Source: Muribaculaceae bacterium
GTDB taxonomy: Bacteria; Bacteroidota; Bacteroidia; Bacteroidales; Muribaculaceae
NCBI GenBank assembly: GCA_022508985.1
Contig: JAFLUA010000010.1
Span: 7,476 to 71,475 of the forward strand
Length of the DNA: 64,000 bases
Reading direction: 5' to 3'
Shown here: positions 3,797 through 42,547 of the stretch, in pieces
Layout of the letters: each line of letters starts with the position of its first letter
How positions within the stretch are numbered: the first letter of the stretch is position 1
Notes under the pieces: generated by a model
Database searches by the model: none
What the model was told of the DNA's origin: nothing
What the model saw: the letters and a program-made list of their open reading frames with translations, nothing else
Program-made: the position numbers and the translations under genes

Positions 3797-4094
3797 AGTT
3801 GATTCTAAGGAATAACAAAATACCCACAAAGATAGACATTTTTTGCCAAAATTCCCTAAAAATCTAACTCCACAACCCCGGATAATTAACACAAAATAAC
3901 ACTTAACGATTAATCCCGCCCTTGAAAGTATACACTTATGTAAACGATGGGAAGCCTGGTATGACTGTTAAATGTTGATATTCAATCCGAACTGGGTATA
4001 TAAACTCAAGATATCGCTTTTATTCATTAGATTTACATTATAATTTTAAAATTAAGAAGTTCACATTCTAATGAATAAGTAGGTAATCGAAGTC

Positions 4095-5373: not shown

Positions 5374-6068
5374 CTTTATATGCTTTAATTGTTATAATAA
5401 TACTTTGCAAATATAGCCGCCATATGTCGCAAAATTCAATACATGTTGAATTATATGAATACGATTGTATAACCTGCCGGCTATAAGTATGCACGTATCC
5501 ATAGATGGCGTTTCACAGACCTAACTCCATCTAATGATAGATTACAAATGGTAAATTTTGCTAATTGTCTCATATGGCGATTTTTACAAGAGTTCTCTTA
5601 GGCTACCAATCGGAGATTTTTTTAACTTGAGTTATATATACAAAAGCGGGTTGCCATCCTTGCACTCTTGAAGGTATCGCCAAACACCTGAACACTGCAC
5701 GGAGTAGCAACCCTATTTTTATAGAGTTACTTCCGCGCCTTATGTGTTCTTTGTTAAACTGGCGATTTATCAAGAGTTAAGGCACGTTTTCATTATTTCA
5801 TTAACCGTCTACTCTAAGACAATGCAAAAATAATAAGAATTCTTAGATTTGCTATAATTTCGTGCCTTTTGTTTTTTATATTTATCGTTAGAGCCATTTC
5901 GCAATATGATTTCATAATACAGTCGTAATTTTACGGTGACTTAATTTATTTGATAACGCCCGATTATGTCTCGGAAAGATTGAAATCGCAGATATCCATA
6001 ATCTTTTATTTTGTTTTCTATCAAAAAAGAATTAATTTTGTTGCATTATTAATTGAAAATATAGAATT

Positions 6069-6518
6069 ATGAATGTTGATTTTATCACGGCTATTAAAAT
6101 GTATTTTGCAAATTATGCAAATTTCAATGGCCGTTCTACACGCGCCGAATATTGGTGGGCAATGCTTTTTACATTCCTTGTTGGCGCTATTCTTGGATAC
6201 ATAGGCTCGAAATGGCTTGAATCCCTTGTTTCGTTGCTATTAATAGTCCCCACCTACGCTGTTATGACTCGTCGTTTTCACGACATCGGTAAAAGCGGTT
6301 GGTGGGTCCTAAAACTTGCTGTTATTGGGGCCATTGCGGGGCTACTTATCGGCCTTTCAATCGTGCTTATGATCAAAAGTGCCGTCTTGGGAATTATCTT
6401 TTTGGTTTTCGGAATCGCTATCTGTATTGCCGTAGCTGCTGTTCAGATTATTTGGCTATGTAAGCCGAGCGTGCCTGACAATGAATATGGACCATGTCCC
6501 TACCCCGACGAATTGTGA
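6069..6518 (+). CDS. DUF805-family inner-membrane protein (YhaH/YhaI-like)
   Basis: GRSTRAEYWW and RRFHDIGKSGWW motifs plus 3-4 TM helices. Confidence 0.8.
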   Translation: MNVDFITAIKMYFANYANFNGRSTRAEYWWAMLFTFLVGAILGYIGSKWLESLVSLLLIVPTYAVMTRRFHDIGKSGWWVLKLAVIGAIAGLLIGLSIVLMIKSAVLGIIFLVFGIAICIAVAAVQIIWLCKPSVPDNEYGPCPYPDEL

Positions 6519-7669
6519 TTAATGCTCTAAAATCGATATACCTATTAGCCCCGGGAGTAGTAATGCTTTTGGGGCTTTGTTCATGCGCTAATCACGGGAC
6601 AGACACTTCACAATCAGCAGTAATACAAATTGCAGATACCATCACTCATCATGCCGAGTATCTTGATATTTATGATAGTGTAGATGGTACAACTTTCATC
6701 GACATCAAAGACCCGTGGAACGATGGCAACTTCCTTGGCCGATATGCCCTTGTAAACAAAGATTCTACCATACCAAATAATATATCGGATAATTATGTTA
6801 TTATCCGCACGCCGGTCGAACGCATAGCTGCTTATTCTGCAATACACACCCAGGCCTTAGACGAACTTGGAGCCATTGGCAACCTCGTTGCTGTTGCCGA
6901 TGCTATCTATTTTCCATCGACCGACACTATCAGTGCCCTGCTCCGCTCCGGGGAAATTGTAGATGTTGGATCATCGCAAGCTCCTTCGGTTGAAAAACTT
7001 GCAATGCAACGGGTTGATCTTGTGCTCAGGTCGCCCATGCAAGGCATTATAGCGCCCAAATTGCCATCTACAATAGTCCCGATTGAGTGTGCCGATTATC
7101 TCGAGACAACACCTATTGGTCGCGCCGAATGGATTTTACTGCTTGGTGAAATATGTGATAAGCGCGATGTCGCGTCGCAAATTTTCAAAAACGTAGAAGC
7201 TCGGTATTTATCTCTTTGCGAGCGCGCAAAGGCGTCGTCATTATCAAACCCTAAAGTCATTACCGAATATGAGCAATCAGGTATTTGGTATGTACCTGCA
7301 GGAGAAAGCTATATGGCTCGCTTGCTCATTGATGCCGGAGCTGAATACCCTTGGGAAAACACCAGCGGGTCAGGCTCTTTGCCTCTCAGTTTTGAGAAGG
7401 TTGCGGAAAAAGCTATAGATGCCGACATCTGGCTATTGAGAACTTTTGGGTATACGCCCGACACACACTCGCTCATGGCTCAAAACGCTAAATATCGTAT
7501 GTTTAAGGCCGTCAAAAACAATGCCGTCTATGGTTGCGACACATCTGTAAAACCACTATTTAATGACTTGGCGTTTCATCCTGAACTAATATTGGCCGAT
7601 TACGTTGCAATTTTTCATCCCGATGTCATGCCCGGATATGAATTAAGGTATTTTTCAAAATCTAAGTGA
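6494..7669 (+). CDS. ABC transporter substrate-binding lipoprotein (iron-siderophore/cobalamin/heme type, BtuF/FhuD-like)
   Basis: Lipoprotein signal (..VMLLGLCSC). Lies upstream of FecCD-type permease and ATPase genes with overlapping or adjacent stop-start junctions. Confidence 0.8.
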   Translation: MSLPRRIVINALKSIYLLAPGVVMLLGLCSCANHGTDTSQSAVIQIADTITHHAEYLDIYDSVDGTTFIDIKDPWNDGNFLGRYALVNKDSTIPNNISDNYVIIRTPVERIAAYSAIHTQALDELGAIGNLVAVADAIYFPSTDTISALLRSGEIVDVGSSQAPSVEKLAMQRVDLVLRSPMQGIIAPKLPSTIVPIECADYLETTPIGRAEWILLLGEICDKRDVASQIFKNVEARYLSLCERAKASSLSNPKVITEYEQSGIWYVPAGESYMARLLIDAGAEYPWENTSGSGSLPLSFEKVAEKAIDADIWLLRTFGYTPDTHSLMAQNAKYRMFKAVKNNAVYGCDTSVKPLFNDLAFHPELILADYVAIFHPDVMPGYELRYFSKSK

Positions 7670-8697
7670 TGAAAAAACGGCACCATATAATACTATTAAT
7701 GCTTTGTGTACTCTCACTGGTTCTATTGCCAATAGGTCTGGTCGTTGGCGGTGTGCAATTTTCTGTGCACGACGTATTTAAGGTGTTATGTGGCAACTAC
7801 GGCGGTCAAAATGCCGAGATAGCACATTTTATAATCATAGAAAGCCGATTGCCGGCATTGATAACGGCATTTTTAGGGTGCGCCGCATTGTCTGTTGCAG
7901 GACTTATTATGCAGACTTGCTTTAACAACCCATTGGCAGGACCTTCCATTATGGGTATATCTTCGGGCGCAAGCCTTGGCGCGGCGTTAGTCATTATGCT
8001 AATGAGCGGAATAATAAGCACATGGGGCAATATTGCTATTATCATTGGTGCTACTGTTGGTGCAATGATTATACTTGGAATAATCGTGCTTTTTTCCGGT
8101 ATCGTAAAAACATCGGAAGTACTTTTAATCGTCGGTATACTAATAGGTTATCTCACAAACTCCGTCATATCCCTATTAAACTTTTTCTCAAGTGATAGCG
8201 CTGTACATTCATTTGTAATATGGGGCTTGGGCACGTTTTCGGCTGTTGGCACTGATAAACTTGCAATATTCTGCACCCTTTCTATATTGATGATATTGAG
8301 TTCGATGCTATATGCTAAGAGTTTGAACGCGATGCTTTTCGGAGAGCGATTTGCCCAAAACGTGGGAGTTTCGACTGCAAAAACACGCACTGCCCTCCTT
8401 TTCATCGCCGGAGCTTTGACTGCAGTAGTTACTGCCTGGTGTGGCCCTATAGGCTTCATAGGTCTTGTAGTGCCACACATTTCGCGTTTGATAATGGCAA
8501 GCTCTAATCATCGCATTTTACTACCCGCCACAGCATTATGCGGAGGCCTCATTGGACTTGTCTGCCAGATAGTATCGGTATGTCCGACCTTCAGCACCGG
8601 TGCTACAATACCGATTAATGCCATAACACCTTTTATCGGTGTACCTGTTATACTCTATGTTCTGATACATAGAAAGAAATTACTATATTTCAATTAA
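7666..8697 (+). CDS. Iron-chelate/cobalamin ABC transporter permease (FecCD/BtuC family)
   Basis: 343-aa polytopic protein with FecCD-like sequence throughout. 4-nt overlap with the upstream gene. Confidence 0.9.
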   Translation: MMKKRHHIILLMLCVLSLVLLPIGLVVGGVQFSVHDVFKVLCGNYGGQNAEIAHFIIIESRLPALITAFLGCAALSVAGLIMQTCFNNPLAGPSIMGISSGASLGAALVIMLMSGIISTWGNIAIIIGATVGAMIILGIIVLFSGIVKTSEVLLIVGILIGYLTNSVISLLNFFSSDSAVHSFVIWGLGTFSAVGTDKLAIFCTLSILMILSSMLYAKSLNAMLFGERFAQNVGVSTAKTRTALLFIAGALTAVVTAWCGPIGFIGLVVPHISRLIMASSNHRILLPATALCGGLIGLVCQIVSVCPTFSTGATIPINAITPFIGVPVILYVLIHRKKLLYFN

Positions 8698-11340: not shown

Positions 11341-12120
11341 TTAGAGCTCTACTTGATTAAGCGACTCAAAAGTATAGCCTTTAGATTTGAGATGCTGTAT
11401 TATCTCTCCTAAGCGATCATATAAGCAATCGATGCGATCGGGCTGAGGTCCGGGATGAATTAGAAGCAATGCACCATTAAGTCCATTTGCTTCCTCAAAG
11501 TCGTACAACATGTCAATCAAAACTTGCGACGACTTATAATTGCGCTCCTTGGGGCTCATATAGTCGGCCGGCGTGACGGTGCCTGGCGTGTAATTAACAA
11601 CATGATATCCAAGGTTCTCTGTAATATCAACACTTTCGCGGTTATAATACTCATACGGAGGCAAGAACCATTTGCTATTCTCTTTCGAAACGCCAAAGCG
11701 CTCAAGCTCTTGGATATTTCTTACTATATCTTGTTCGATTTCCTCTTTTGTAACAATCAAAGAATCGCGTCGCTCCCACGTTGCATACAATATATGCCCG
11801 TCGGAATGACCGCCCACATAGTGACCACCATCTATGATATTGCGAATCAATTGCTCATGTTCTTTAAGGCGCAGGCAGTTACCAGTCAAGAAAAACGAAC
11901 CTTTCACGTTTTCTTCCTTCAATATTCGGAGAATAGTCTCCCCGCCTTGAAACAATGAGTCGGCCGAAAAAATTAAAAATATTTTTTTCTCCGACGGATT
12001 AATTCTAACCACAGCGCCATGGGCATCCCTGTCTAAAACTAAACTCTCAGCAACCGAAGATTTCGGTGCACAAGCCACCATCACAAATAGTAACGCAGCA
12101 ATAAATGTATTCTTAATCAT
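11341..12120 (-). CDS. Polysaccharide deacetylase family protein (NodB homology domain)
   Basis: Signal peptide/lipobox and NodB-like motifs (FSADS, GGHSDGH, LLIHPG). Confidence 0.8.
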   Translation of the reverse strand: MIKNTFIAALLFVMVACAPKSSVAESLVLDRDAHGAVVRINPSEKKIFLIFSADSLFQGGETILRILKEENVKGSFFLTGNCLRLKEHEQLIRNIIDGGHYVGGHSDGHILYATWERRDSLIVTKEEIEQDIVRNIQELERFGVSKENSKWFLPPYEYYNRESVDITENLGYHVVNYTPGTVTPADYMSPKERNYKSSQVLIDMLYDFEEANGLNGALLLIHPGPQPDRIDCLYDRLGEIIQHLKSKGYTFESLNQVEL

Positions 12121-12344
12121 ATATTACAATCTTCGACGCACAACATTATGCATCGGTTTTCCAAGCAAATATAATCATTATTTATCATTACACCAAATTT
12201 GATAACTCGGTTATTCTTTCCCTACTTTCGAGTCCTACACGGTCCTGCCATCGTTGTAATGATACTTTGATGATGATCCGAAACTTGCTAAGCAGATATG
12301 AGGCCTCTTTACCAGAGTGGCCGGTAAAATCACTGCAATGACGT

Positions 12345-15300
12345 TTATTCAATTTGTAATTTTTCTGAACTATCTGATAAAATATTCTCTAATGTATTCT
12401 TTACAACCGTTTCTATCTTATTCAATAGTACTTGAAATGATTCTCCTTGTTCAAAAACCTTGGCTGACATATTACTTCGATAATCAGAAATCTTTATTTG
12501 AGAATCATCTGGCATTTTGTCGGCATCCATAATGTTACTCATCATCTTCTTAAGCTTTTCACCTATATCCATTTTAACTTTTGTTGAAGAAATAATAATG
12601 CTCTCTGGTAATTCTTTCAGGTTCTGATTCTTGTATTCTCTTAAATCGACACAACATAAAGCATAATTGTCTGGATGAAGAACTGCGGTCCTAACTTGGT
12701 GCATACTCATGTGTGCAGGTTCGGTAAAGTCCCATTTGCTTTTTACTTCCACATGGAAAACATCATCCCATTGCCCATTTTTATTAACACGAACTACGAT
12801 ATCTTGTCCGTTTTGCATATCTTCTGCAAATGCATGACCATCTTCTATTGCCGGATTTATTATGTTTACAAGTTCTGAACCTATATTTTCTCGTAGCACA
12901 TCTTCTATATGCTTGCCGATGGTATAAAGATGGTTAAATCGTGCCAAATTTTCTTCTTCCAATTTTTGCTGATGTTCCATTTTGTTGAGCATCTGTTCTA
13001 TATCTCCCAATTCGCTCAATTTAGCAAGTCTTTCCAAATTATCATCTTCTAAATCCATCAATGAGAAGAGGCTTTCTTGGGCGGTTCCACTTTTCATACT
13101 AAAAGTATAAGTCGCCTTTTTCTCATTAATCTGTCCGAACCAGTTTTCCCAATCCTTTGACTTCCCAATTCTTAATATAATTTCACGAACTATTTTTGAA
13201 AACTTTCTCTCGTTACTATCTTGTTTCATATCTGCCACAAGACTTGTCTCGATTTTATTTGCAATATCTAAAGGAGTGTCTTCTGTTAAAGTAACAAGAT
13301 TCGTAAAGCCTGTATCAACCCAGTCCTCATGAAGATCTTTACGAAACAATGCTATATATATATCAGCCATCTCCTCTGGCACTCCATTATTTTTATGAAG
13401 TTCATTTTTAACACACAGCTCACCTAATTGATTGGGGATTACTCCATAATCATCAAGTTTTTTTAACCGCTCTTCGTTTTTGCTTGAAGTATATTCTTCT
13501 AAAAACTTTTTTAACCAGTTCTTGTTCTCTTTAACCCAATCTTTTGGTTGGACACTAATTTGGTAAAGCGTGTAATCGAGCAGGAAATTGAAAGCTGTTT
13601 TGTAAAACTCCTCTTCGTCATCTCGTAATTTTACGATATTAACTTTTTTAAATCCTTTACCATAGAAGTCCACAAGAATCGGCATCATGCGTCCACGTTG
13701 ATTTTGATTGATAAAATCCGTTTGTGATGATGCAGAACAAAATTTTATCAAAGCATCAATTTGTGATTGAGTTAAATCCTTTTTCGATGCTAATGAAGAA
13801 TTTCTCCATGTTGAAATGGTTGCTGAGATTGCCTTGTATAAATCATCTTGTGTATACTCTCCTACCTCACAAACATCAAGAAACGTGCTGTCATAAATTT
13901 TATCCACATCGTCACCCATTACAACATTGACAAGTTCATACACTTCTTCTGTCATAAAGTTGCCATGCAACAAATTCCTTTTTAAACGTAATTCTCCTTT
14001 TCGGTTAGGCAATAGTGCATGATTTGTCATCATTCCTTCATTTCCACTATCTTTCAGAAACATTAGGAATGTGTGTAGATCCTCAGACTTTGTTTTTATG
14101 GCATTGCAGACATCGTCAACCGAAATGAAGAATTCTGTATCACGGTTACACCTCCACCTATCTACTGTTTCCGACCAAGATATCAGACTCTCTGATGGCA
14201 TAAGATACGATTCTCCATCCACTTTCTTAGGAAAAGAAGCATATTTTGCCAATATTTCCTCATAAGCGTTCCTTTTCTCTTCGTCTAAATTTTTATAAAA
14301 ATCTGGATGCAGCAGCTTTACAGAACTATCGGATATGCTTTTATAGGCATCATCAATGGGAATAACTTTCCAATTAGGAATATTAATAATCCACATTTCT
14401 TGCATGCTTTTATAAAACCGCATGGTCTCTTCATCTTCACTTGTTGTAGGAAAAGATACTTCACACATCTTGTTACCTAATAAATGGGCATTTTCGTCTT
14501 TTTCATAATAAGACATCAAAACTGTAGTCATCTCTTTTAGTATTTCTTCATTCATCCTGCCTTTTTCTTTACGCACAGCAGCACTACCGGGAAGTATAAT
14601 ATTATTGCGAGTTTCAACTGGATGAAAGCGCCTTGAGTGAAATATAAAATTCACACCGAATTTTTCTGTCCCTAAAAGAGGAAATGATAAAAACAAACTT
14701 GGAATGTCTTTTACGTCTCCACATTCTTTTGGAAATGGAGGAATGATAATAATGTCTCCCTTATCAGATTTTAAACTTTTACAATTGTAAGATGTAGAGT
14801 TTTTACTATTACAATCTTTCATGGACACATTCTCTTCCCAAACCTTCCAGCCGTCATAATCTAAATCGGACGATTGACCTTCGGCATCTTTTTCTATTAC
14901 ATAATGTAGTTGAGTCTTATCATTGCGAATCTCAACTTTTTTTATCTCCTCGTTGATAATCAAAACAAAAGGTATCAATCTGATAACGCTTGCCAGCTGG
15001 TCTGAAACATTATTCACTTGTTCTGGAGTAAGGTCGTAACGAAATGATGTTTTATCATCGCCGATATGTTTGCGTAATTCTTCCTTGCATAAAGATTTTA
15101 CTTGGTCTAATTGTTCTTTCATTATTTTCGGTCCTTCAGGAGAATCGACCTTTGTACGATCAAGTTTAAAATCTTTTACTTGCACATAACCACTAATCTC
15201 ACCGCCACTCCTTTTAACCGAATATGGAGCGCTAACATATACCATACGGTTAAAAGCATGGGTCGTCATAAATCCTGTACCATATTGTCCAACAAGATTT

Positions 15301-15602
15301 GCATTAGCTCTATCTTTTGAACTATCTTGTTTTACAAGCGCACGAAATGAAGTATAATCAAACTCTTTTCCGCAATGGGTAAAAATGAGACTGTTATTTG
15401 TAAGTTCTATCGTAATCTGAGCCTGATTATCTTTGCACATATCACGAGCATTTTGAACAAGTTCCCATATTGCTCGTTCACCACTCTTTTCGTCAAGATT
15501 TTCTAACCCTTGACGTATTTTGTTGCAATAGCCTTCATATTCCAAACGTTCATCTTCATCCTTTTGCCACTGCTCTTCTGGTGTTAATTCTAATTCAATC
15601 AT
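12345..15602 (-). CDS. GHKL (sacsin/MORC-like) ATPase with a C-terminal DUF3883 / restriction-endonuclease-like domain, ~1085 aa
   Basis: The listed ORF start at 15632 is a TTG; the first ATG is at 15600-15602 (MIELELTPEE..). Motifs are ERAIWELVQNARDM, NLVGQYGTGFMTTHAF, FPLLGTEKFGVNFIFHSRRF, and C-terminal NGQDIVVRVN...FHVEVKSKWDF. Confidence 0.75.
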   Translation of the reverse strand: MIELELTPEEQWQKDEDERLEYEGYCNKIRQGLENLDEKSGERAIWELVQNARDMCKDNQAQITIELTNNSLIFTHCGKEFDYTSFRALVKQDSSKDRANANLVGQYGTGFMTTHAFNRMVYVSAPYSVKRSGGEISGYVQVKDFKLDRTKVDSPEGPKIMKEQLDQVKSLCKEELRKHIGDDKTSFRYDLTPEQVNNVSDQLASVIRLIPFVLIINEEIKKVEIRNDKTQLHYVIEKDAEGQSSDLDYDGWKVWEENVSMKDCNSKNSTSYNCKSLKSDKGDIIIIPPFPKECGDVKDIPSLFLSFPLLGTEKFGVNFIFHSRRFHPVETRNNIILPGSAAVRKEKGRMNEEILKEMTTVLMSYYEKDENAHLLGNKMCEVSFPTTSEDEETMRFYKSMQEMWIINIPNWKVIPIDDAYKSISDSSVKLLHPDFYKNLDEEKRNAYEEILAKYASFPKKVDGESYLMPSESLISWSETVDRWRCNRDTEFFISVDDVCNAIKTKSEDLHTFLMFLKDSGNEGMMTNHALLPNRKGELRLKRNLLHGNFMTEEVYELVNVVMGDDVDKIYDSTFLDVCEVGEYTQDDLYKAISATISTWRNSSLASKKDLTQSQIDALIKFCSASSQTDFINQNQRGRMMPILVDFYGKGFKKVNIVKLRDDEEEFYKTAFNFLLDYTLYQISVQPKDWVKENKNWLKKFLEEYTSSKNEERLKKLDDYGVIPNQLGELCVKNELHKNNGVPEEMADIYIALFRKDLHEDWVDTGFTNLVTLTEDTPLDIANKIETSLVADMKQDSNERKFSKIVREIILRIGKSKDWENWFGQINEKKATYTFSMKSGTAQESLFSLMDLEDDNLERLAKLSELGDIEQMLNKMEHQQKLEEENLARFNHLYTIGKHIEDVLRENIGSELVNIINPAIEDGHAFAEDMQNGQDIVVRVNKNGQWDDVFHVEVKSKWDFTEPAHMSMHQVRTAVLHPDNYALCCVDLREYKNQNLKELPESIIISSTKVKMDIGEKLKKMMSNIMDADKMPDDSQIKISDYRSNMSAKVFEQGESFQVLLNKIETVVKNTLENILSDSSEKLQIE

Positions 15603-16057
15603 AACGATTTCATTTTTATATTTTACAAACAATGTTGACTATCACTAAATTTAATGGACAGATTTGAGTGTGAATAACTAATGAGTTTATAGTTTTTTTC
15701 GCCTAAATCAGGTTTATTTTTCGTTTAAAACTTCACGAAACAGGTTTAAGCCGTTATTTTATTCCTAATTTAGTTGTCATCTCCCTGACAACGCAAATTT
15801 ATAAATTATATTTTGTATTTTTTGTATGTCCGTCATATCACCGGATATTTCATTTCATATTTGACAACTGCCAAGCCACAGTTGACCCTATCTCAACAAT
15901 CCGACTTTGCCAGTTGAGTTAGCCCTTCTTCTAATTTATATTAAATTATATTTTAGCATTATTTTTGTATATTTGCATATAATTTTTAAGTTACCTTAGT
16001 AACATAAAATACAGAGAAGTAGTAACAAATAAAATTAAAAAATTATTTTTCATAAAA

Positions 16058-16519
16058 ATGGAAAAGATGATATACTACAAAACCAAAATAGATGGATGGT
16101 TTTGGATTTTAATCTTTGTAATAACATTCACCCTTCTTATGGTTTGCTCTATTTCTGAAGATGGATGGTCTTGGCCGGGAATAGTGGTAATCTGCGTGTT
16201 TCTCTTAATTGTTTTGCTATTGATATGGATAATTATCACAGTTAAATATGCTATTAGAGGAGCCGAATTAGGGGTAAGAAACTTAGCCTATAAATGGGAA
16301 TGGTTTCCTATAAAAAAAATTGAATCTATTAAGCCGGTAAAGAGCGTGCTTGCCGGAGCTGCTTTGTCCTTCAATAGGCTTTCCATAAAATTTACCGACC
16401 ATAAGGTGTTATTGAGTACAATGCCTTTGGAGATTGCTCCTAAAGACCAAAATAAATTTATAAATGATCTCAAATCTGTTAATCCTCAGATTAAAGTATT
16501 AAACCTCAATAATAATTAA
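16058..16519 (+). CDS. Membrane protein with a bacterial PH-like (bPH) domain
   Basis: Two N-terminal TM helices followed by an ~80-aa domain resembling YdbS/YdbT-type bPH. A TATATTTG box lies about 80 nt upstream. Confidence 0.55.
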   Translation: MEKMIYYKTKIDGWFWILIFVITFTLLMVCSISEDGWSWPGIVVICVFLLIVLLLIWIIITVKYAIRGAELGVRNLAYKWEWFPIKKIESIKPVKSVLAGAALSFNRLSIKFTDHKVLLSTMPLEIAPKDQNKFINDLKSVNPQIKVLNLNNN

Positions 16520-16604
16520 TTATTGTTAATCAAATAATAACTGCTTGATTGTACTATTGCCTCTAAAAGTATTCACCAAGGACGACGGAAATAGTCTCCT
16601 TTTC

Positions 16605-16634
16605 AAAAGCGGCTCGAATTTCGGGTCGCTTTTG
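16605..16634. terminator. Hairpin AAAAGCGGCTCGAA-TT-TCGGGTCGCTTTT between the 16058 and 16836 genes
   Basis: Imperfect GC-containing stem flanked by an A-run and a T-run (bidirectional-terminator shape). Confidence 0.4.
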
Positions 16635-16835
16635 CTGTCTTGTAGATTAATCATGCACACTATGTTAAATATAATTGTTATATTTACACACAGAATAGAT
16701 ATGAATAATCTCTTCTAATAATCAATATATTCTCCTTTCAAGTGAAAGCTGAAGAAGTATCATATCAACCGCAAGTTGTTTTAAGACACCGTCTATGAAG
16801 AATTTGAATTCTAATCACGTTATAATCTATAAGTT

Positions 16836-17528
16836 ATGGACGAAAAGAAAATAAAAGTGCTGGTGGTAAACGGTTCTCCGCGACCTAACCGCAACACGGG
16901 CAAAGCGTTAAGAGCTGCAATGGAAGGAGCCAAAGAAAACGGCGCTGATGTTGAACCCGTCAATCTCTACACTATCAAGGCTTTGAAAGGCTGCTACAGC
17001 TGCTTTCAATGTCAACGCAAGGATTTTGACAAAACCAATCCCGTGTGCAGCATGAAAGACGAGGCTTGGCCATGGCTCGAAAAGGCTCGCGAGGCTGATG
17101 TCGTGATTTTCGGTTCACCGGTTTATTTCAGTTATCCTACAGGTCTGCTCCGCGCATTCATCGAACGTTTTCTTTTTCCGAAATATTCCTATGACTCAAA
17201 TGTCAATCTCGTTAATCCTAAAAATACGGCCTGTATATTCACTATGAATTGCCCTCGTGAGTATATGGAAAGCATCAATTACCCCATTTTGTTGGGCAAT
17301 ACTGCCGATGGACTGAAGCACGTTTACGGTTTTGGAGAGGCTCTTTACATCTGCAACACCTATCAGTTTGACGACTACTCTCAAATGCAGTTCGACATGT
17401 TCAGTGAGGAAGAAAAACGAGCCTACCGCGACACGCACTTCCGAGAAGACCTCGACCGCGCTAAAGAATTAGGGCGTAGATTGGTGGAAGACGCTAAAAA
17501 ACGAGTGAATCTATTAATTAATTTTTAG
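16836..17528 (+). CDS. Flavodoxin-like / NADPH-dependent FMN reductase family protein (iron-sulfur flavoprotein-like)
   Basis: VLVVNGSPRPNRNTGK N-terminus, Cys cluster CYSCFQCQ, FGSPVYF motif. Confidence 0.75.
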   Translation: MDEKKIKVLVVNGSPRPNRNTGKALRAAMEGAKENGADVEPVNLYTIKALKGCYSCFQCQRKDFDKTNPVCSMKDEAWPWLEKAREADVVIFGSPVYFSYPTGLLRAFIERFLFPKYSYDSNVNLVNPKNTACIFTMNCPREYMESINYPILLGNTADGLKHVYGFGEALYICNTYQFDDYSQMQFDMFSEEEKRAYRDTHFREDLDRAKELGRRLVEDAKKRVNLLINF

Positions 17529-18054
17529 GCTTATGATGTGCCGCATCCCAACGGTCTGCTGCATTGATGATTTTCCAAAGTTGACTTTTCCCGGCCTTTG
17601 CTCTATCCTTTTTAGCTTCTTCGTTCTCGGACCAGTTCCCCATGTGCCAACGAATTGCAAGCCTTTCGTCTTCAGTAAGATTAAATCCCAAGTCCTCAAT
17701 TATCCTTACAGATCGATAACCATGACCTGGTGTCTTAACTTTTTTAGTCTTTATGTTCCCATTTTCATCAAAATAGAATTGCCTTGTTTTGCAAATATCA
17801 TGTAACAAGGCCGATATAATGATACGATCTTGTGGGATTTCATCATTACTCTTTTCGATTGCCTTTTTTAATACACCCAAGCTATGTTGAGCCAAGCCGC
17901 CACGCCAATTATGATGCCGATTTTTTGAAGATGGTACCTCAAAAAAATTATTTTCCTTCATGTACTCGATAATCTTATCTACCCCTTCTCGGTGAGTAGA
18001 TTTCAAATATTTAATGATTATCGCTTTGTTATATAAATTTTTGAGATACACCAT
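17518..18054 (-). CDS. HD-domain phosphohydrolase
   Basis: HHNWRGGLAQHSL, LLHDICK, PGHGYRS and AADRWDA motifs. The 3' end overlaps the convergent flavoprotein gene by 11 nt. Confidence 0.75.
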   Translation of the reverse strand: MVYLKNLYNKAIIIKYLKSTHREGVDKIIEYMKENNFFEVPSSKNRHHNWRGGLAQHSLGVLKKAIEKSNDEIPQDRIIISALLHDICKTRQFYFDENGNIKTKKVKTPGHGYRSVRIIEDLGFNLTEDERLAIRWHMGNWSENEEAKKDRAKAGKSQLWKIINAADRWDAAHHKPKN

Positions 18055-18085
18055 TAATCGACAACTGCCTCAACAGCCCACTTCT

Positions 18086-19663
18086 TTACTTAACTATTTC
18101 AGGGGCTTGCCAAAACCATTCGTCATCAGTTGTGATGATGTCTGCATTTGTGTAGTTGCTATTCAAAGGGACCAACGCAACATGTTGACCTTTCGGATGG
18201 TCGGTTTCTCCTTCCGGCTCGGCTTGATTTATGGTATTGATCGACATTATATAGAGGTTCTTAGCCATATAATGATCAAGATGATCTTCTTTGGTCTGTT
18301 TATTGCGATGGTTCCAGTTCGCATCTTCATTCAATACCAAAGGTAAATCATTTTGCAATCTATACCTTACTTCACCTGGATGTAGAAGAAGTCCTTTTTC
18401 ATCGGTAACATAAGCTGCAAATGTGGGGTCAACCCATATCCATTTATTAAGCGAGTTGCTCCATGCAACGCAGATAACATGACAATCATAGTCAGTGTCC
18501 CATTTTTTTGATTCACATGTTATATAACGAGCTGGAATTCCTTCTGCAAGGAGTGCCTCTGTGAGACTGATTGCCAGGGCCCGACAATTGTAACCACAGC
18601 TATCCCGTTTTGACGAATCATATATGTTTCGCATATTTCTTGGTCCTCGAGGAAAATCATTATGGCCGTCGTGCTCGATATTATCGTGTACCCAGTACAT
18701 CAAATTCTTAATTCTGCTTATATCATCGCCATTCCCGGCTATGCTGTCAAGATTAAATCTTTCGCGTGTTAATCTAAGCAACGAATCCGTAGGCTGGGCA
18801 TAAACGAATTTAGGCTTCTGAATACTATCTTTCTGATAACTTGGAGATTCTTTCAGAACTTCCAGTTCGCTCTTGACATCATCGCCTACATTCCATGCGT
18901 AATCGATAGCCTCCTTAAGTATCTTGGCCTTTTCACTATTTATTTGTTCAAGGTAAGGAAGCAATTCCTTAGCATTAAAGTATTGCCACTTACGCATCCA
19001 CTTGGGATTAGTTGCTCGTAAGACCTCACACTGATACTCAGCAAGTTGCTCCAACCCTTTTATTAGTTCATGATTTGCTATAATATCTTCTACGGTAGCT
19101 TTCGGCGTTAAATTTTCATACCACACATTTAAGAAAGCCCCATTATTGGTAAATTCTTCAAGTTTCGGACATTCAGCGGTAGGAACAATATTAAGGTTGA
19201 ACCTGTCAACGACATTTTCAAATATCACACTATCGAGCTGTGGACAATCAAAAGCAAAAGTCGGCCCTCCTGTGCTTGACACAGGTCCACGAAACACTAC
19301 CTTACGAAGATTTGGGCAATGTGAAACCAGTGTGCAATCAAAATGGCCTACTATACCGTTAAATTCGATTTCTTCGATTGTTGCATTATCTCTAAACAAC
19401 CCAGATGGAACATAATCAATGTTCCCAAAAGAAACTTTCTTTAGATTTTTGAACCCATAATCCTCAAATCTTCCAATCATTCCAACATCTGGTATTGTAA
19501 TTTCTTCAGCTTCGCTTGAACACACAAGACTGTCCGGGAACAATATATAGTTGTCTCGAATCGGAGAATCAAAAAAATTCGGCTTTTTGATTACTACATT
19601 TTCGGCAAACGAAATAATTGTGCCAATCGCACAAAGAACTATCGTAAAAAGAAGCTTTTTCAT
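18086..19663 (-). CDS. Secreted protein: BspA-type leucine-rich repeats plus a transglutaminase-like cysteine protease domain
   Basis: Signal peptide, N-terminal LRR_5-like repeats (F..C..L..V.F), and C-terminal Cys-His-Asp arrangement (CGYNCRALA ... DCHVICVAW ... WVDPT). Confidence 0.7.
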   Translation of the reverse strand: MKKLLFTIVLCAIGTIISFAENVVIKKPNFFDSPIRDNYILFPDSLVCSSEAEEITIPDVGMIGRFEDYGFKNLKKVSFGNIDYVPSGLFRDNATIEEIEFNGIVGHFDCTLVSHCPNLRKVVFRGPVSSTGGPTFAFDCPQLDSVIFENVVDRFNLNIVPTAECPKLEEFTNNGAFLNVWYENLTPKATVEDIIANHELIKGLEQLAEYQCEVLRATNPKWMRKWQYFNAKELLPYLEQINSEKAKILKEAIDYAWNVGDDVKSELEVLKESPSYQKDSIQKPKFVYAQPTDSLLRLTRERFNLDSIAGNGDDISRIKNLMYWVHDNIEHDGHNDFPRGPRNMRNIYDSSKRDSCGYNCRALAISLTEALLAEGIPARYITCESKKWDTDYDCHVICVAWSNSLNKWIWVDPTFAAYVTDEKGLLLHPGEVRYRLQNDLPLVLNEDANWNHRNKQTKEDHLDHYMAKNLYIMSINTINQAEPEGETDHPKGQHVALVPLNSNYTNADIITTDDEWFWQAPEIVK

Positions 19664-19817
19664 TTGAGTAATTTGCGGTTATTATCACTATTCTCCAAAA
19701 TATCCATTTGATGAATAGCTATTTATATGAACGAAAAGAAGTTAATTGAAGTAGTCTTCGCCTGGTGATTGTTTGTTTTCCGCGTACATCTGACCGATTA
19801 ACGCCTCCTTATTTCTT

Positions 19818-20207
19818 TTATCCAAACATACTACATATACCTGCAATAATCATTATGAAAATTATAGCAAGAAATACAGTTCCTATCGTACTGCCGATAA
19901 ATGCCCAAAAGCCATTTGAACGAGATATTTCTCTTCCTGTTTTTCCTACTAAAACGTATTGTGTAACCTGCTCATTTTTTATTTGAGCATTTGGATATTG
20001 CTTCTTACATTTAATTGCAAGCGACAATGCATCTACTAAATTATTTCTTTCTTGAGTTGACATGATAGGACTATTTAACTCTGTTTGTACAATTGGTTTT
20101 ATTGTGCAATCTTCATTTATACATTTTGTACAAAGCATAAATATAGGGCATCCTATACATGGCGAATCAGTGGCTTTTGCCGGAGTATATTTTTTTAATT
20201 TTAACAT
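19818..20207 (-). CDS. Hypothetical Cys-rich protein with a C-terminal TM anchor
   Basis: 129-aa ORF with N-terminal CIGCPIFMLCTKCINEDC and a C-terminal hydrophobic helix. No family recognised. Confidence 0.45.
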   Translation of the reverse strand: MLKLKKYTPAKATDSPCIGCPIFMLCTKCINEDCTIKPIVQTELNSPIMSTQERNNLVDALSLAIKCKKQYPNAQIKNEQVTQYVLVGKTGREISRSNGFWAFIGSTIGTVFLAIIFIMIIAGICSMFG

Positions 20208-20343
20208 GGTATTTTGATTAAGTATTTACAGTTGCAAAATTATGTATTTTCTATCAAATAATGTCTTTTACTCCTTACAAATAGCGGTGTAATTTTGTGG
20301 CGTAAACATAATTACGTATGTCTATTATCGTCTGTCATCGTTC

Positions 20344-20535
20344 TTAGGACGCTTGTTTAGCAAGAACGACGCTTTGGACCTCTATAAAATATACCATGCC
20401 CAAAGATGCCGCATACCATTTACTATACTCAATGGCTTTGTCAGCGGTGCCGACTTCGCCCGGTATCTTCAACGATAGTTCGACCCAGTTTACGGTTAAA
20501 GCTATGGCAACAACAAGATTTAATCCGGCATCCAA
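20344..20535 (-). CDS. Small hypothetical protein (63 aa), start overlaps the stop of the nucleotidyltransferase gene by 16 nt
   Basis: ORF only; ATG embedded in ..TGGATGCCGGATTAA. Could be a gene fragment. Confidence 0.3.
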   Translation of the reverse strand: MDAGLNLVVAIALTVNWVELSLKIPGEVGTADKAIEYSKWYAASLGMVYFIEVQSVVLAKQAS

Positions 20536-21146
20536 TAAGCGCCTCCTTCTTTACGATTTTTTAATACCCACTCTCGCAACTCTGCGAGAGTTTCTATTTT
20601 ATCTTCCATTACTGCCTGATAATATTCCACGCCATGAATAATTTCATCCTCCGGCGTTTCATATTTCAACCTCAAAATCGTATCTCTTTGAATATCCGTA
20701 AGATTTCGCTCTATTTTATCGGCCATTAGTTCAAAGAACCCATCATATTGAGTACCACTCTCAATATGAATAATATCTAATTGCCAAGTCCGACCATCAA
20801 AGTCTTCATACTTAATATGCCAAGCAATACAGTGTTCATCTGTATATAGCCCATTTATACATTTTAATTCTTTGGCTCTTTTATCTTTCGCAATCTGAGA
20901 AGCAATTTGAAAACTGAATTCTTCGGTAATACCCGAAGAATAGACATGGAGGTCAATATCAAGGTGCTTTACCAGTAATTTCATGGCCAAAGAGCCTATT
21001 AAATTTACTTTGCACCCATATTTTTCCCACAATTCAACTATTTGTAATTCCTTGAGGATTTCAAAAGCCCTTTTCTGATTTCGTTGTGCTATTACTTCGT
21101 AATCTTTCATCTTTTTAGTGTCAAATAAATCGGTAAAGTTACACAA
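20520..21146 (-). CDS. Pol-beta superfamily nucleotidyltransferase-domain protein
   Basis: G-S-x10-D-x-D motif (IGSLAMKLLVKHLDIDLHV); 208 aa; subfamily not recognised. Confidence 0.65.
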   Translation of the reverse strand: MCNFTDLFDTKKMKDYEVIAQRNQKRAFEILKELQIVELWEKYGCKVNLIGSLAMKLLVKHLDIDLHVYSSGITEEFSFQIASQIAKDKRAKELKCINGLYTDEHCIAWHIKYEDFDGRTWQLDIIHIESGTQYDGFFELMADKIERNLTDIQRDTILRLKYETPEDEIIHGVEYYQAVMEDKIETLAELREWVLKNRKEGGAYWMPD

Positions 21147-21371
21147 ATTCTGTCTTTTTGAGCCTGGTCGAACCTATTTAATTTTGTGGTAAAGAAATTT
21201 TTAGAGTAAAAATTATGGACCACAAACTCACTAAATAGTTCGGCCTATGGCTTAACTCGCCCGACGACGAAAGAGATTATCGTGTCGGTGCGGTTTTACT
21301 TTCGGCGCTGAACATCCGAAAGAAAATAACATCTTCTTCTATTACGATTTCGTCACAACCGGTGCCACGAT

Positions 21372-21475
21372 GATTTCAATAAAAACTTGTTGCTTCCAGC
21401 GAGTGGCTCAAGCTCCGCGATGTGTGCATATTCCGCGCGATCGATTGTCCGGTGTTCTTAATCCTTTGTGATTAA
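21372..21475 (+). repeat. Repeat copy D: ~100-bp 3' stub of the W-X-Y module (frameshifted tail of ORF Y)
   Basis: ..EWLKLRDVCIFRAIDCPVFL.. in one frame. There is a 16-nt identity CGATTGTCCGGTGTTC with copy A (40036-40051) and a 1-nt deletion relative to A. Confidence 0.55.
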
Positions 21476-21486
21476 AAAATAATACT

Positions 21487-21494
21487 TACCTTTG
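21487..21494 (+). promoter_or_regulatory. Bacteroidetes -7 box TACCTTTG, 4 nt upstream of the ATG of the TfoX-like gene
   Basis: Matches TAnnTTTG. Confidence 0.45.
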
Positions 21495-21498
21495 CATT

Positions 21499-21813
21499 AT
21501 GGCTTGTTCACAGGAATATATAGATTTTATATGTGATGTTCTCGCTCCACTTGGAGAAGTCCGTTCTCGCAAGATGATGGGTGATTACGTCATATATGTT
21601 AACGAGAAATGCGTTATCACTGCTTGTGATAATAATGCATTTGTAAAGAAACTTGACTGTATTGCATCATTAATGTCGGACGCTGAAATCGGTTGCCCAT
21701 ACGAGGGAGCGAAAGAAGCATATATACTTGATTTTGCCGACCAACGTAAAGCAAGAGAAGTCATATCTATTCTGTGGGAGGCTTTGCCTTTCCCAAAGAA
21801 AAAGAAGAAATAG
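21499..21813 (+). CDS. TfoX/Sxy N-terminal-domain family protein
   Basis: 104 aa; RKMMGDYVIYVNEKCVITACDNNAFVKK resembles the TfoX_N core (KKMFGG.. LYLK). Confidence 0.6.
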   Translation: MACSQEYIDFICDVLAPLGEVRSRKMMGDYVIYVNEKCVITACDNNAFVKKLDCIASLMSDAEIGCPYEGAKEAYILDFADQRKAREVISILWEALPFPKKKKK

Positions 21814-22114
21814 TTGTCATTTCGTACCCAAGATACGGTCTATATCTTTGCTACCATCGCCTTGGCGCTTTGCCCCGCAAAGAACCTTACATGAGCGAAT
21901 GGGATAGCGAAGTCATCGGCTTGCCGCTTTCGTAGCTAAGCGGAGGAAGAACGCCAACGGCTCTATCCTCGAACTCCGTAACGTCATGTCACTTCGATAC
22001 GACTTTTACGGAGGTTGGCGAAACGTCAAAATCCTTTCGTCGGGCGAGTGTCGCAGAATCCGCGACGTCTGTATTTTCCGTGTTAATTCCCTCGAAGTGT
22101 TCCTTTAATCACAA
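21810..22114 (+). repeat. Repeat copy B: internally deleted W-X-Y module (5' ~75-nt conserved segment joined to a start-less 3' part of ORF Y)
   Basis: 21810-21885 is about 88% identical to 41743-41818. 21915-22108 aligns with 42306-42478 and with 39908-40057. The frame encoding ..RLAAFVAKRRKNANGSILELRNVMSLRYDFYGGWRNVKILSSGECRRIRDVCIFRVNSLEVFL has no start codon. Confidence 0.65.
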
Positions 22115-22142
22115 TCTTTTGGACTATCTCGTAACGAATGAG

Positions 22143-22150
22143 TAACTTTG
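22143..22150 (+). promoter_or_regulatory. Bacteroidetes -7 box TAACTTTG, 4 nt upstream of the ATG of the 22155 gene
   Basis: Matches TAnnTTTG. Confidence 0.45.
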
Positions 22151-22154
22151 CGAT

Positions 22155-22565
22155 ATGAATAAACGACAGCAACTTAAATTTTGCGATTGGACGTTACTAT
22201 TTCTTATGATAGTAACTCTTGCATCAAGTATTCAACTTGAAGTATCTGATAGCAGAAGCACAACATTCATTTGTCTTCACGCTATTATCGCATCTGTTTT
22301 TATTGGTTTTGTCGTTTATCACATTATATTACATTTTGGATCAAATAGATGGTTTTTTAAGTTCAGTAAACTTAAAAGCAGCGTTACACGTTTATTATGG
22401 TGGATAACTACAATTACAATTATTTCGGCTATTGTTGCTTTCATTCATTGGATAACTACATTTACTCATTCTCCCATTGGAGGGGTACACGGTAAAATAG
22501 GCTTCCTCATGATTTTGTTTGCAATAATTCATACCATAAAGAGAGCTGCTTTCTTCAAACGATAA
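22155..22565 (+). CDS. Four-TM membrane protein with conserved histidines (DUF4405-like)
   Basis: 136 aa with 4 predicted TM helices, each carrying His (..YHIILHFG.., ..FIHWITTFTH.., ..IIHTIKR). Confidence 0.5.
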   Translation: MNKRQQLKFCDWTLLFLMIVTLASSIQLEVSDSRSTTFICLHAIIASVFIGFVVYHIILHFGSNRWFFKFSKLKSSVTRLLWWITTITIISAIVAFIHWITTFTHSPIGGVHGKIGFLMILFAIIHTIKRAAFFKR

Positions 22566-22601
22566 AAATGCATAAGAGCCACGCTTTCGCGCAGCTCTTA
22601 T
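22564..22601 (-). terminator. Hairpin ATAAGAGC-N14-GCTCTTAT plus a T-run (minus strand) just after the tRNA-Ser 3' end
   Basis: 8-bp perfect stem at 22572-22579 / 22594-22601, followed on the minus strand by TTTTT. Confidence 0.55.
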
Positions 22602-22603
22602 TG

Positions 22604-22691
22604 CGGAGTGAGGGGGATTCGAACCCCCGATACGCTTTTGGCGTATACACGCTTTCCAGGCGTGCCTCTTCAACCACTCGAGCATCACTCC
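22604..22691 (-). tRNA. tRNA-Ser (anticodon GGA), class II with a long variable arm
   Basis: The reverse complement reads GGAGTGATGCTCGAGTGGTTGAAGAGGCACGCCTGGAAAGCGTGTATACGCCAAAAGCGTATCGGGGGTTCGAATCCCCCTCACTCCG. It has a 7-bp acceptor stem, anticodon loop CTGGAAA, T-loop GGTTCGAATCC, and no encoded CCA. Confidence 0.9.
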
Positions 22692-39241: not shown

Positions 39242-39661
39242 AAACAAAAGAAATACAATTAATTACAGCACCTCAGAAGCCTGATAGTGCAATCTTCAAA
39301 ATCCTATATTTTCCCAACTTTTACCCCTTTCTCGCTTGACTCGGCTCGTAAGTTCTATTTCGTCAACTGCTTCAACATCGTTGAACAGCTGCCGCTTGTC
39401 TGCTCCACGACTGACAAGATAAGCTCCGACCGCTCCGTGGCGGTTATAGGTCGTGGCGCACAATTCTACGACGTTACCAACTCCAAGGAGTATGAGACCG
39501 AAACCGGACCTTTGACTTCCGACGAGTGCCGTCTTATTGAGCAAATGCTCCAATCGCCAAAGGTCAGGATACAATGAGGCTTCGAGTCGGATGTCGAGGA
39601 AGATTTCTTTGGTCATTGTTTATCTTTTAAGAAGTCCAAAGCGCTTCGCGATAACGACGCC

Positions 39662-39820
39662 ATGTTTGAAATTCTCATTACCGACTTCACTTGTGAGTTG
39701 TCGAACTCCGAACTTAACAAGGTCAAGTTCACATGGCAGTTTGCGGAGGCTACTCCGAAACTCAATCTTCCGACTACTCCGAGAATATTCAACTCCGTTT
39801 ATAACCCTGTCTATTCGTAA
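39662..39820 (+). CDS. Small ORF X (52 aa), ends ..RIFNSVYNPVYS
   Basis: Below the ORF-track cutoff. Its C-terminal codons are conserved with copy C (GIFNDKFNPVYS, stop 42222-42224), with synonymous changes gtc/gtt, tat/tac and tcg/agc. The frame is open back to 39578. Confidence 0.35.
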   Translation: MFEILITDFTCELSNSELNKVKFTWQFAEATPKLNLPTTPRIFNSVYNPVYS

Positions 39821-39823
39821 CCA

Positions 39824-40057
39824 ATGGCTCGCTCGATAGATATATCCACAGCTCGGCACATCCTTAACTCCGGCGACCCTGTCGATATTTCCGTTTGGAA
39901 ATCCGATGGCTCTATCCTCGAACTCCGTAACGTCATTTCTATTCGCTACGACTTTTACGGAGGTTGGAGAAATGTCAAAATCCTTGCTTCCGGCGAGTGC
40001 AGAAAATTGAGAGACATCTGCATTTTCCGCGTGAACGATTGTCCGGTGTTCCTTTAA
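39824..40057 (+). CDS. Small conserved hypothetical protein Y (77 aa): ..SGDPVDISVWKSDGSILELRNVISIRYDFYGGWRNVKILASGECRKLRDICIFRVNDCPVFL
   Basis: ATG lies 3 nt after the X stop. 12 of 21 differing codons versus copy B are synonymous in this frame. It is followed by its own palindromic terminator. Confidence 0.6.
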   Translation: MARSIDISTARHILNSGDPVDISVWKSDGSILELRNVISIRYDFYGGWRNVKILASGECRKLRDICIFRVNDCPVFL

Positions 40058-42539: not shown

Positions 42540-42547
42540 TAATTTTG
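42540..42547 (+). promoter_or_regulatory. Bacteroidetes -7 box TAATTTTG upstream of ssb
   Basis: Matches TAnnTTTG. Confidence 0.4.

Follow-up and report, generated by a model that had tools for sequence, protein, structure and literature searches.

Morons are extra genes, each with its own promoter and terminator, that are located between two conserved late genes of temperate tailed phages, and the concept was reportedly put forward by Juhala, Hendrix and colleagues in 2000. Integron cassettes are generally promoterless and are expressed from a platform promoter; IntI is adjacent in complete integrons, and CALINs are clusters of attC sites without an integrase. PeSLs, which were described in T4-type phages, consist of a promoter and a stem-loop that flank variable open reading frames (ORFs) in hyperplastic regions (Arbiol et al. 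2010, PMC2839356), and their proposed role is to provide both transcription signals and the homology needed for the shuffling of modules (PMC2839356). Mini-circles formed by recombination between the flanking motifs are a further criterion for cassettes of this type. The rAID-1 arrays of Bacteroidales have repetitive intergenic sequences and appear to acquire genes actively (Ross et al., bioRxiv 10.1101/471110); their defining features are a XerD-family recombinase gene that heads the array and type VI secretion system immunity genes as the cargo (bioRxiv 10.1101/471110). Here, we compare these systems with an array of two single-gene cassettes, one TfoX-like and one DUF4405-like, that lies next to a tRNA-Ser(GGA) gene in a 64-kb stretch of DNA from a Muribaculaceae bacterium (GenBank contig JAFLUA010000010.1). 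This whole stretch of 64,000 nucleotides (nt) is referred to as the window.

The array is probably what remains, after decay, of a cargo ("moron") slot in a family of temperate Muribaculaceae phages. The repeated modules in the window read as pieces of the two phage genes that flank this slot and not as a dedicated boundary element, which explains the repeat architecture without invoking a new recombination system. The comparisons also identified a Muribaculaceae phage family with one extremely plastic cargo slot, pieces of which are scattered through host chromosomes, with the cargo still changing within a species.

Phage genes X, Y, and P and the slot between Y and P

Gene Y had 329 homologs at 74-88% identity and was found in 29 IMG/VR viral contigs of about 20-70 kb. 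The gene order in other contigs was X (357-370 amino acids [aa]), Y (76-77 aa), P (433-461 aa), and the gene for a DUF6712 protein, and the neighbors of Y included a large terminase gene (phrog_2, E=1.4e-9) and an amidase endolysin gene (phrog_822, E=5.7e-58). The late genes of the phages run from TerL via X (about 368 aa), Y, P (about 440 aa), and DUF6712 to the endolysin gene, with the Y-P junction as the slot. Full X-Y-P-DUF6712 sets were also present on contigs of 116-144 kb, and their presence on contigs longer than 100 kb indicated that the phages exist as prophages. The family comprises uncharacterized, abundant Muribaculaceae phages from mouse and human gut samples. Neither X nor Y matched a family in Pfam or PHROGs, and X had no match among INPHARED phages or PLSDB plasmids. 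In the case of P, only a weak match to a portal family was found (phrog_11226, E=2.9e-4 to 1.1e-3). Y was modeled as a small SH3/Tudor/WYL-like beta-barrel (predicted local distance difference test score, 88.6), and a fold search with this model returned only weak matches, to uncharacterized phage proteins, and yielded no functional lead.

The content of the slot was surveyed in 120 phage, prophage, and remnant loci in which both the end of Y and the start of P were visible. The gap between Y and P was 17 nt or less in 22 of these loci (empty slots), 104 nt in 2, and 297-2,910 nt in 96 (occupied slots). The 96 occupied slots held 46 unrelated content groups, and some contents were common to phage-type and remnant-type loci. 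In empty-slot phages, the Y stop codon was followed by about 20 nt and then by the ATG of P. In all of the occupied slots, the cargo opened with a TAnnTTTG box shortly after the Y stop codon and a segment that we call R was found at the 3' end, often directly abutted by the stop codon of the cargo; the boundaries of the slot were the stop codon of Y and R. Each inserted unit would begin with a host-type TAnnTTTG promoter just past the Y stop codon and end with R. The cargo genes, which were located between adjacent conserved phage genes and were present or absent among relatives, were functionally diverse and unrelated to phage propagation. They encoded lipoproteins, membrane proteins, an Rce1-like protease, a TonB-dependent receptor, a redoxin, a Gp49/helix-turn-helix (HTH) toxin-antitoxin pair, and DUF4405-like proteins. 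The cargo also appeared to have signals of its own, namely consensus -7 boxes and a strong hairpin with a T-run.

Segment R had the sequence GCGTCTTTTCGC-N-GTCCATAACTT(T/C)G...GTTATGGAC. It consisted of a putative phage promoter (GTCTTTTC-N19-TAACTTTG) with -33/-7 spacing and a strong hairpin that held the ATG of P in its right arm, followed by a T-run. In IMG/VR, the hairpin-bearing R pattern was found in this phage family only, upstream of P only, and once per slot boundary. The promoter motif GTCTTTTC-N19-TAnnTTTG preceded X, P, and two other phage genes and occurred about 2-4 times per 20 kb. Single-sequence folds of the hairpin from 12 phages gave predicted energies of -17 to -26 kcal/mol; the outer stem was invariant, and the inner stems came in at least four different versions, all paired. 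RNAalifold recovered only the outer stem, as the inner stems were out of register. Judging from these components, R would terminate transcription of the cargo and restart that of P.

Arrays of two cassettes were also present in the phages. In phage contigs L024-L029, the order was Y, a 443-aa gene, a separator in which R and P codons 1-19 were joined to Y codons 60-76, a DUF4405-like gene, R, and P. Another array, in L255, had a separator that joined about 15 P codons near Y codon 44. These two separators and the two in the window (copies B and C, described below) carried coding remnants of P and Y, and the four had four different P'|Y' join points, at least one of them with short microhomology. 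The differing join points therefore pointed to illegitimate or homologous recombination and against site-specific, integron-type recombination. The separators carry what appears to be the signature of an unequal or illegitimate crossover of the P 5' end with the Y 3' end, which would formally be a tandem duplication of the slot.

Several further observations were made on these phages. Sites with the GTCTTTTC-N19-TAnnTTTG motif were located at L018:8832, 11447, 14816, and 17128, at L037:10531 and 16301, and at 21152-21186 in the window, and phage contig L020 encoded an ECF-type sigma factor (17721-18215) that might be a candidate reader of the motif. Variants of the R hairpin at 41771-41839 in the window and at L255:7760-7830 kept their pairing via compensatory outer-stem changes (GTCCATATC/GATATGGAC and GCTCCATAAT/ATTATGGAGC). 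The Gp49 (HigB-like)/HTH pair was slot cargo at L047:10306-10909. A second variable region extended from the terminase gene to a 64-aa gene (L017:2039-6336 vs. L018:6088-6525) and contained genes for a GerE regulator, a TonB-dependent receptor, and an outer membrane protein beta-barrel in L017 vs. a single 145-aa gene in L018.

The array beside tRNA-Ser(GGA)

The features of the array and its immediate surroundings in the window were as follows.

21152-21186, plus strand: motif resembling a phage late promoter (GTCTTTTT ... TAATTTTG), located before a phage gene fragment; this class of motif is also found before phage genes X and P and two others
21215-21313, plus strand: partial phage gene "MDHK..." (codons 1-33) containing an in-frame stop (tblastn, L018 1902-2474 and L037 1225-1842, 52% identity)
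21295-21396, plus strand: fragment of a phosphoribosyltransferase-like phage gene, codons about 175-213 (tblastn, L018 1195-1869 and L037 214-903, 53-56%)
21383-21460, plus strand: stub D, codons 51-76 at the 3' end of phage gene Y, with loss of the stop codon (nucleotide identity, tblastn, 16-mer)
21487-21494, plus strand: Bacteroidetes-type -7 promoter box TACCTTTG, 4 nt before the TfoX-like ATG (sequence; spacing as in the phage cassettes)
21499-21813, plus strand: cassette 1, TfoX-like gene, 104 aa (Pfam TfoX_N, E=2.5e-6; close homologs named TfoX/Sxy)
21810-21884, plus strand: copy B, part 1, truncated promoter region (R) of the portal-like gene P (84% identical to copy C, 41743-41817)
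21885-21911, plus strand: 27-nt filler at the deletion junction of copy B (no match to copy C or phage sequences)
21912-21952, plus strand: insertion common only to copies B and C, with a hairpin (CCGCTT...AAGCGG) at 21924-21943; it splits Y at codon 26
21953-22108, plus strand: copy B, part 2, Y codons 26-76 and stop codon (tblastn, 80% aa identity, E=1e-25)
22143-22150, plus strand: -7 promoter box TAACTTTG, 4 nt before the membrane-protein ATG (sequence)
22155-22565, plus strand: cassette 2, DUF4405-like membrane protein, 136 aa (weak DUF4405 match)
22572-22601, minus strand: terminator-like hairpin of tRNA-Ser, 13 pairs and then a T-run on the minus strand (sequence inspection)
22603-22691, minus strand: tRNA-Ser(GGA) (ARAGORN and Rfam)

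A repeat search within the window identified four related copies, A, B, C, and D, that were 67-91% identical to one another. Copies A and C, with which B and D were compared, are located at serB-ssb.

39353-39817, plus strand: copy A, part 1, X pseudogene (codons 227-368) interrupted by an in-frame stop at 39575-39577 (48% identity by tblastn, E=1e-40)
39824-40057, plus strand: copy A, part 2, intact phage gene Y, 77 aa (329 homologs)
41743-41839, plus strand: copy C, part 1, complete R segment, with the ATG of P (41834) in the right arm of the hairpin (folding and comparison)
41908-42225, plus strand: copy C, part 2, N-terminal region of P, about 93 codons (codons 6-93 matched), frameshifted (tblastn, E=1e-26)
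42241-42505, plus strand: copy C, part 3, degenerate Y, with codons 4-26, the insertion common with copy B, and then codons 26-76 (tblastn)

When phage proteins were compared to the window via tblastn, copy A corresponded to X 227-368 plus an intact Y, copy C to R, P 6-93, the X tail, and Y, copy B to R' plus Y codons 26-76, and copy D to Y codons 51-76. No phage-core genes beyond fragments of X, Y, P, and two further phage genes were found in the 64-kb window.

A previous reading of this DNA from the sequence alone (the sequence-only reading) had proposed the order stub D, TfoX-like gene, deleted copy B, DUF4405-like gene, hairpin, and tRNA, and all of these features were recovered in that order at or near the places assigned to them. 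It had described D as the last ~100 nt of Y, with a 16-nt identity to copy A and a 1-nt deletion. D was indeed a Y 3' end. Positions 21383-21457 were 75% identical over 75 nt to copy A (39977-40051), Y codons 51-76 were matched with E=0.004 in the tblastn search of the 64-kb window, and the exact 16-mer CGATTGTCCGGTGTTC was present at 21442-21457 in D and at 40036-40051 in copy A. However, D kept about 78 nt instead of ~100, and it differed from copy A by 2 nt at the stop codon, not by 1. The boxes that had been noted before both genes were present, each a TAnnTTTG box 4 nt upstream of the ATG, and the TfoX-like stop codon (TAG, 21811-21813) overlapped, as proposed, with the beginning of copy B (at 21810). 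Copy B had been divided into a conserved 75-nt 5' segment, about 30 nt of unrelated sequence, and the 3' two-thirds of Y without a start codon. This division was correct (the filler measured 27 nt), but the 75-nt segment was the promoter region of P and not a part of Y, and the remaining part of Y lacked the original start codon but had an internal in-frame ATG at 21986 (40-aa ORF). The hairpin before the tRNA was also present; it was terminator-like on the minus strand and therefore appears to be the terminator of the tRNA-Ser gene itself. The broader description, namely, single-gene, promoter-equipped cassettes bounded by recurring remnants as at serB-ssb, was borne out, and the remnants were found in hundreds of other sequences.

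Part 1 of copy B had a homolog before P in every occupied phage slot, namely, segment R. It retained a -33-like sequence (GTCATTTC, at 21816), a -7 box (TATCTTTG, 21843-21850), and the left hairpin arm, and the right hairpin arm and the ATG were deleted. This segment matched copy C over 65 nt at 91% and over 75 nt at 84%, the 56-nt block at 21912-21967 was 91% identical to copy C (42303-42358), and the Y part matched copy A over 138 nt at 82%. The private insertion of about 40 nt in copies B and C occurred nowhere else among 163 loci, and a 20-mer common to the two copies had an expected count of 0.01, so the similarity was far beyond chance. Because copies B and C alone had this insertion, the separators at these two window loci, which lie 20 kb apart, were considered to be related by descent. 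In copy C, the R hairpin had a predicted energy of -29.6 kcal/mol and a compensatory outer-stem change, and part 2 was fused to the last 11-12 codons of X (...IFNDKFNPVYS and stop; the X tail was compared with L065 and L166).

As for the cassettes, a homolog of cassette 2 (48% identical) was the second cassette after the P'-Y' fusion in phage contigs L024-L029. The TfoX-like family included 1031 homologous proteins in varied chromosomal contexts, and TfoX-like genes were in none of the fetched phage slots. One chromosomal TfoX-like homolog (L173) had a Y stub of roughly 35 nt upstream and the same promoter spacing. An ATG exactly 4 nt after the -7 box was observed at 21487-21501 and 22143-22157 in the window, at L026:11766-11779, and in the L040 and L043 slots. 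This spacing in several cassettes would imply leaderless or near-leaderless mRNAs and ORF-exact cargo boundaries. Upstream of D, the two scraps of phage genes were in reversed order relative to the phage, corresponding to a duplication-type junction.

The window was Bacteroidales-like in its TAnnTTTG promoter boxes, and its best protein matches were from Muribaculaceae. The array is located at the end of a GC-poor stretch (12000-22600; 0.33-0.40 vs. 0.43-0.48 around it). Accessory genes in this stretch encoded a 1095-aa protein without Pfam matches, a bPH protein, an FMN reductase, an HD protein, a BspA-LRR/transglutaminase lipoprotein, and a nucleotidyltransferase; a BspA-LRR gene was also cargo in phage L037 (15050-16225). 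In an Rfam scan of the window, the tRNA was the sole match, and no known RNA family explained the 5' segment. A 106-aa ORF on the minus strand (39296-39616) was rejected as a gene; it was the antisense shadow of the X pseudogene, and the antisense of X was matched in many phage loci. Template and variable repeats like those of diversity-generating retroelements were also rejected, as the substitutions between copies were spread over all bases and were not adenine specific. The short ssb gene after copy C (42540-42959) had a promoter region (GCAAAATTTCCTAATTTTGCA) that resembled a phage-slot cargo promoter and no downstream R segment.

Chromosomal relics and the probable origin of the array

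Relics centered on the slot, with the order X' (C-terminal), Y, cargo, and P' (N-terminal), were found at many chromosomal sites, at least five of them unrelated.

L065: relic after hisS
L166: relic inside an ABC-ATPase gene duplication, on a 501-kb contig
L001-8: relic next to an integrase and a toxin-antitoxin pair, Duncaniella muris
L191 and L194: relics on contigs of 188-267 kb
L185, L190/191, L193/194, and L195: other examples

In a 1.46-Mb chromosomal sample, the only phage-core fragments were X, Y, P, and the scraps upstream of D. In L166 (7147-11137), a direct duplication of roughly 460 bp from the 3' part of an MlaF-like ABC-ATPase gene enclosed X'(215-368), Y, two zinc-ribbon genes, and P'(1-45); a 153-aa fragment of the ATPase gene lay to the left of this unit, and the full gene (257 aa) lay to its right. 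This arrangement looks like a Campbell-type circle insertion or a replicative duplication-insertion. A Gp49/HTH pair that was 45% identical to the one in phage contig L047 lay directly upstream of the D. muris relic (L001-L008:2863-3511), beside a tyrosine recombinase gene. A duplicate of the Y N-terminus (codons 3-23) was located just upstream of the full Y at L045:9840-9902, L251:939-1001, and L001-L008 about 3845-3907; because it was present in both a phage lineage and the D. muris relic, it tied the relic to that lineage.

The hisS site, which had the order peptidase S9, Zn-peptidase, hisS, Y, cargo, and P, was compared in 10 contigs from a single species (L256, L250, L241, L253, L245, L259, L248, L227, L212, and L210; about 5800-7700 in each). 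These contigs were 98-99% identical up to approximately the last 60 nt of Y and then had different cargo, including a DUF4405-like gene, 167-aa and 153-aa genes, and a zinc-ribbon gene. Past the cargo, P resumed at only 77-85% identity and was either full length or truncated. The remnants were graded in length, extending up to P-DUF6712 and two more genes. Turnover at this site would fit homologous exchange with related phages. The sequence-only reading had expected cassettes to turn over while the remnants persisted, as opposed to an invariant arrangement with fragments found nowhere else. The diversity of slot contents in the census and the within-species turnover at hisS, which is a locus other than tRNA-Ser, agreed with this expectation; contents varied, and the fragments were widespread.

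From these comparisons, we infer the following order of events and recombination pathway. Two-cassette arrays would form in the phage when the P 5' end is joined to the Y 3' end by unequal or illegitimate recombination, producing P'-Y' separators like copies B and C. After lysogeny, most phage genes would be deleted and the cargo and its regulatory flanks kept, and the surviving Y and P' stubs could serve as homology arms for cargo exchange with related phages. In the most economical history of the tRNA-Ser locus, a phage that already had a two-cassette array would have taken up residence, and all sequence left of Y codon 51, as well as all sequence past the stop codon of the DUF4405-like gene, would then have been lost by deletion; the starting point could equally have been a stub into which phage cargo was taken up later. 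The order that remains at this locus is phage gene scraps, a Y' stub, the TfoX-like gene, an R'/Y' separator, the DUF4405-like gene, and the tRNA terminator.

Several points weigh against a phage-slot origin of the array. The TfoX-like cassette may derive from the host, by capture, or may at no time have served as phage cargo, because genes of this kind are widespread on chromosomes and were in no fetched phage slot. The assignment of P as portal-like is weak, and the promoter and terminator functions are read from sequence patterns. There were no attachment-site or integrase signs of integration at the tRNA-Ser site, and no attachment site, integrase, or tRNA-Ser fragment tied the phage family to tRNA-Ser(GGA). 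Specifically, a domain scan of ORFs between 4 and 24 kb in the window (array and island included) yielded no integrase, no second copy of the tRNA 3' end was found in the window, and no tRNA-Ser fragment was found in any fetched phage or remnant locus. Decay and turnover at the tRNA-Ser site itself were unobserved, as the same locus was found in no related genome. With regard to the tRNA-proximal hot spot that the sequence-only reading had put forward, the major facilitator superfamily gene next to tRNA-Ser(GGA) was a neighbor in 0 of 80 related genomes (i.e., synteny was not conserved), and searches with the exact cassette proteins identified only the window's own contig and one 2.5-kb contig. 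In addition, the recurrent survival of the slot region alone is not fully explained by random prophage decay.

A more far-reaching proposal, which we offer only tentatively, is that the chromosomal Y-slot-P' stubs are maintained landing pads. Together with a family of temperate phages, they would form an integrase-independent network for cassette exchange, in which promoter-equipped genes would move between phage genomes and fixed platforms on the chromosome by homologous recombination in the Y and P arms and would stack by unequal crossover. If stubs do act as recombination platforms, gut Bacteroidales and their phages would trade accessory genes that have ready-made expression signals, and the conserved flanks would ease the tracking of this exchange in metagenomes and its experimental testing. 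If the stubs are maintained exchange pads, they would be a phage-borne functional analogue of the integron in gut Muribaculaceae.

Three other explanations were weighed against a decayed phage slot. An unlikely one is that the X'-Y-cargo-P' unit is itself mobile, as small circular or transduced DNA that integrates by single crossover or illegitimately, and that the relics are not prophages that decayed in place. Such a unit would account for relics that keep the slot and a few hundred bp per side at five or more unrelated chromosomal sites, for the host ABC-ATPase duplication of roughly 460 bp around the L166 unit, which is expected of a Campbell-type circle insertion, and for the private insertion shared by separators that are 20 kb apart. 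However, the tRNA-Ser locus also has scraps of two genes whose phage counterparts are about 8 kb away from the slot, which suggests that a larger phage piece was once present there. Furthermore, the graded remnants at the hisS site fit progressive decay, and a circular form was not observed.

Considerably less probable is the mechanism that the sequence-only reading had favored, an integron- or CALIN-like system with its own boundary element. In such a system, a recombinase acting at a fixed site (the R hairpin or the Y 3' end) would move promoter-containing cassettes, and the remnants would be its sites. R does resemble such a site, as it is conserved, structured, and roughly 70 nt long, is present at every cassette 3' end, and has AAC/GTT inner stem bases as in attC. 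Nevertheless, the extent of R matched a -33/-7 promoter plus the P start codon, and its IMG/VR occurrence was only upstream of P. The precise cargo boundaries (stop codons that abut R and several ATGs 4 nt past the -7 box) are also as expected of cassettes, but these cassettes have their own promoters, and the separators between them hold P and Y coding fragments whose join point differed in all four examined. A tyrosine recombinase gene was located just upstream of one D. muris remnant, but this integrase had no counterpart in the fetched phage loci, and the window island had none. The integron-like mechanism was thus not upheld; the boundary pieces were the Y 3' end and the P promoter and 5' end, that is, the flanks of a phage moron slot. 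Finally, a misjoining of metagenome repeats can be set aside as barely credible: the window is part of a metagenomic contig with repeated modules (European Nucleotide Archive ERZ27293309, 72 kb), but a contig from another sample (L052) was 100% identical to 19445-21944, a stretch of 2,500 nt with the island genes, D, TfoX, and the first part of B, which shows that the D-TfoX-B join is no assembly artefact, copies that are 67-91% identical are too divergent to mislead an assembler, and analogous arrays were present in many independent assemblies.

Comparison with known systems

The rAID-1 arrays were considered and rejected as a match. The array beside tRNA-Ser had no XerD recombinase, its cargo was TfoX-like and DUF4405-like rather than immunity genes, and its repeats were phage gene remnants.

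In the case of integrons and CALINs, the likeness holds for function only and not for mechanism. Both systems have arrays of single-gene cassettes, a recurring structured 3' element, and variable content at a fixed platform. Here, however, there was no IntI, the junctions were non-uniform, the cassettes bore promoters, and the separators were phage gene fragments; homologous or illegitimate recombination would be the simplest account of the exchange. Uniform crossover, as judged by the four separator join points (attC structure was not scored), was absent, as were IntI and promoterless cassettes.

Cryptic prophage remnants also have truncated or frameshifted phage genes beside retained accessory genes and can be adjacent to a tRNA gene. 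At the array, truncated and pseudogenized phage gene homology was likewise found without a complete phage and with no attachment site or integrase. The array differs from such remnants in that the slot and its immediate flanks alone were kept, the mini-relic recurred at many sites, and cargo turned over within a species.

Phage morons and PeSL cassettes are the closest concepts. As in the PeSL system, a conserved promoter and stem-loop motif flanks variable phage ORFs. PeSLs, however, number about 50 per genome, have sigma-70 early promoters, and belong to virulent phages, whereas the hairpin-bearing element described here was found only before the portal-like gene, in temperate phages in which the promoter class occurs about 2-4 times per 20 kb and the separators have coding fragments. 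As in morons, the cargo was present or absent among close relatives, was unrelated to virion functions, and often encoded a membrane or secreted protein. The present system differs from described morons in that a single junction (Y-P) is a hypervariable slot with at least 46 contents, has the putative restart promoter and the hairpin of R whenever it is occupied, forms arrays by means of P'-Y' fragment separators, and survives alone at many chromosomal sites.

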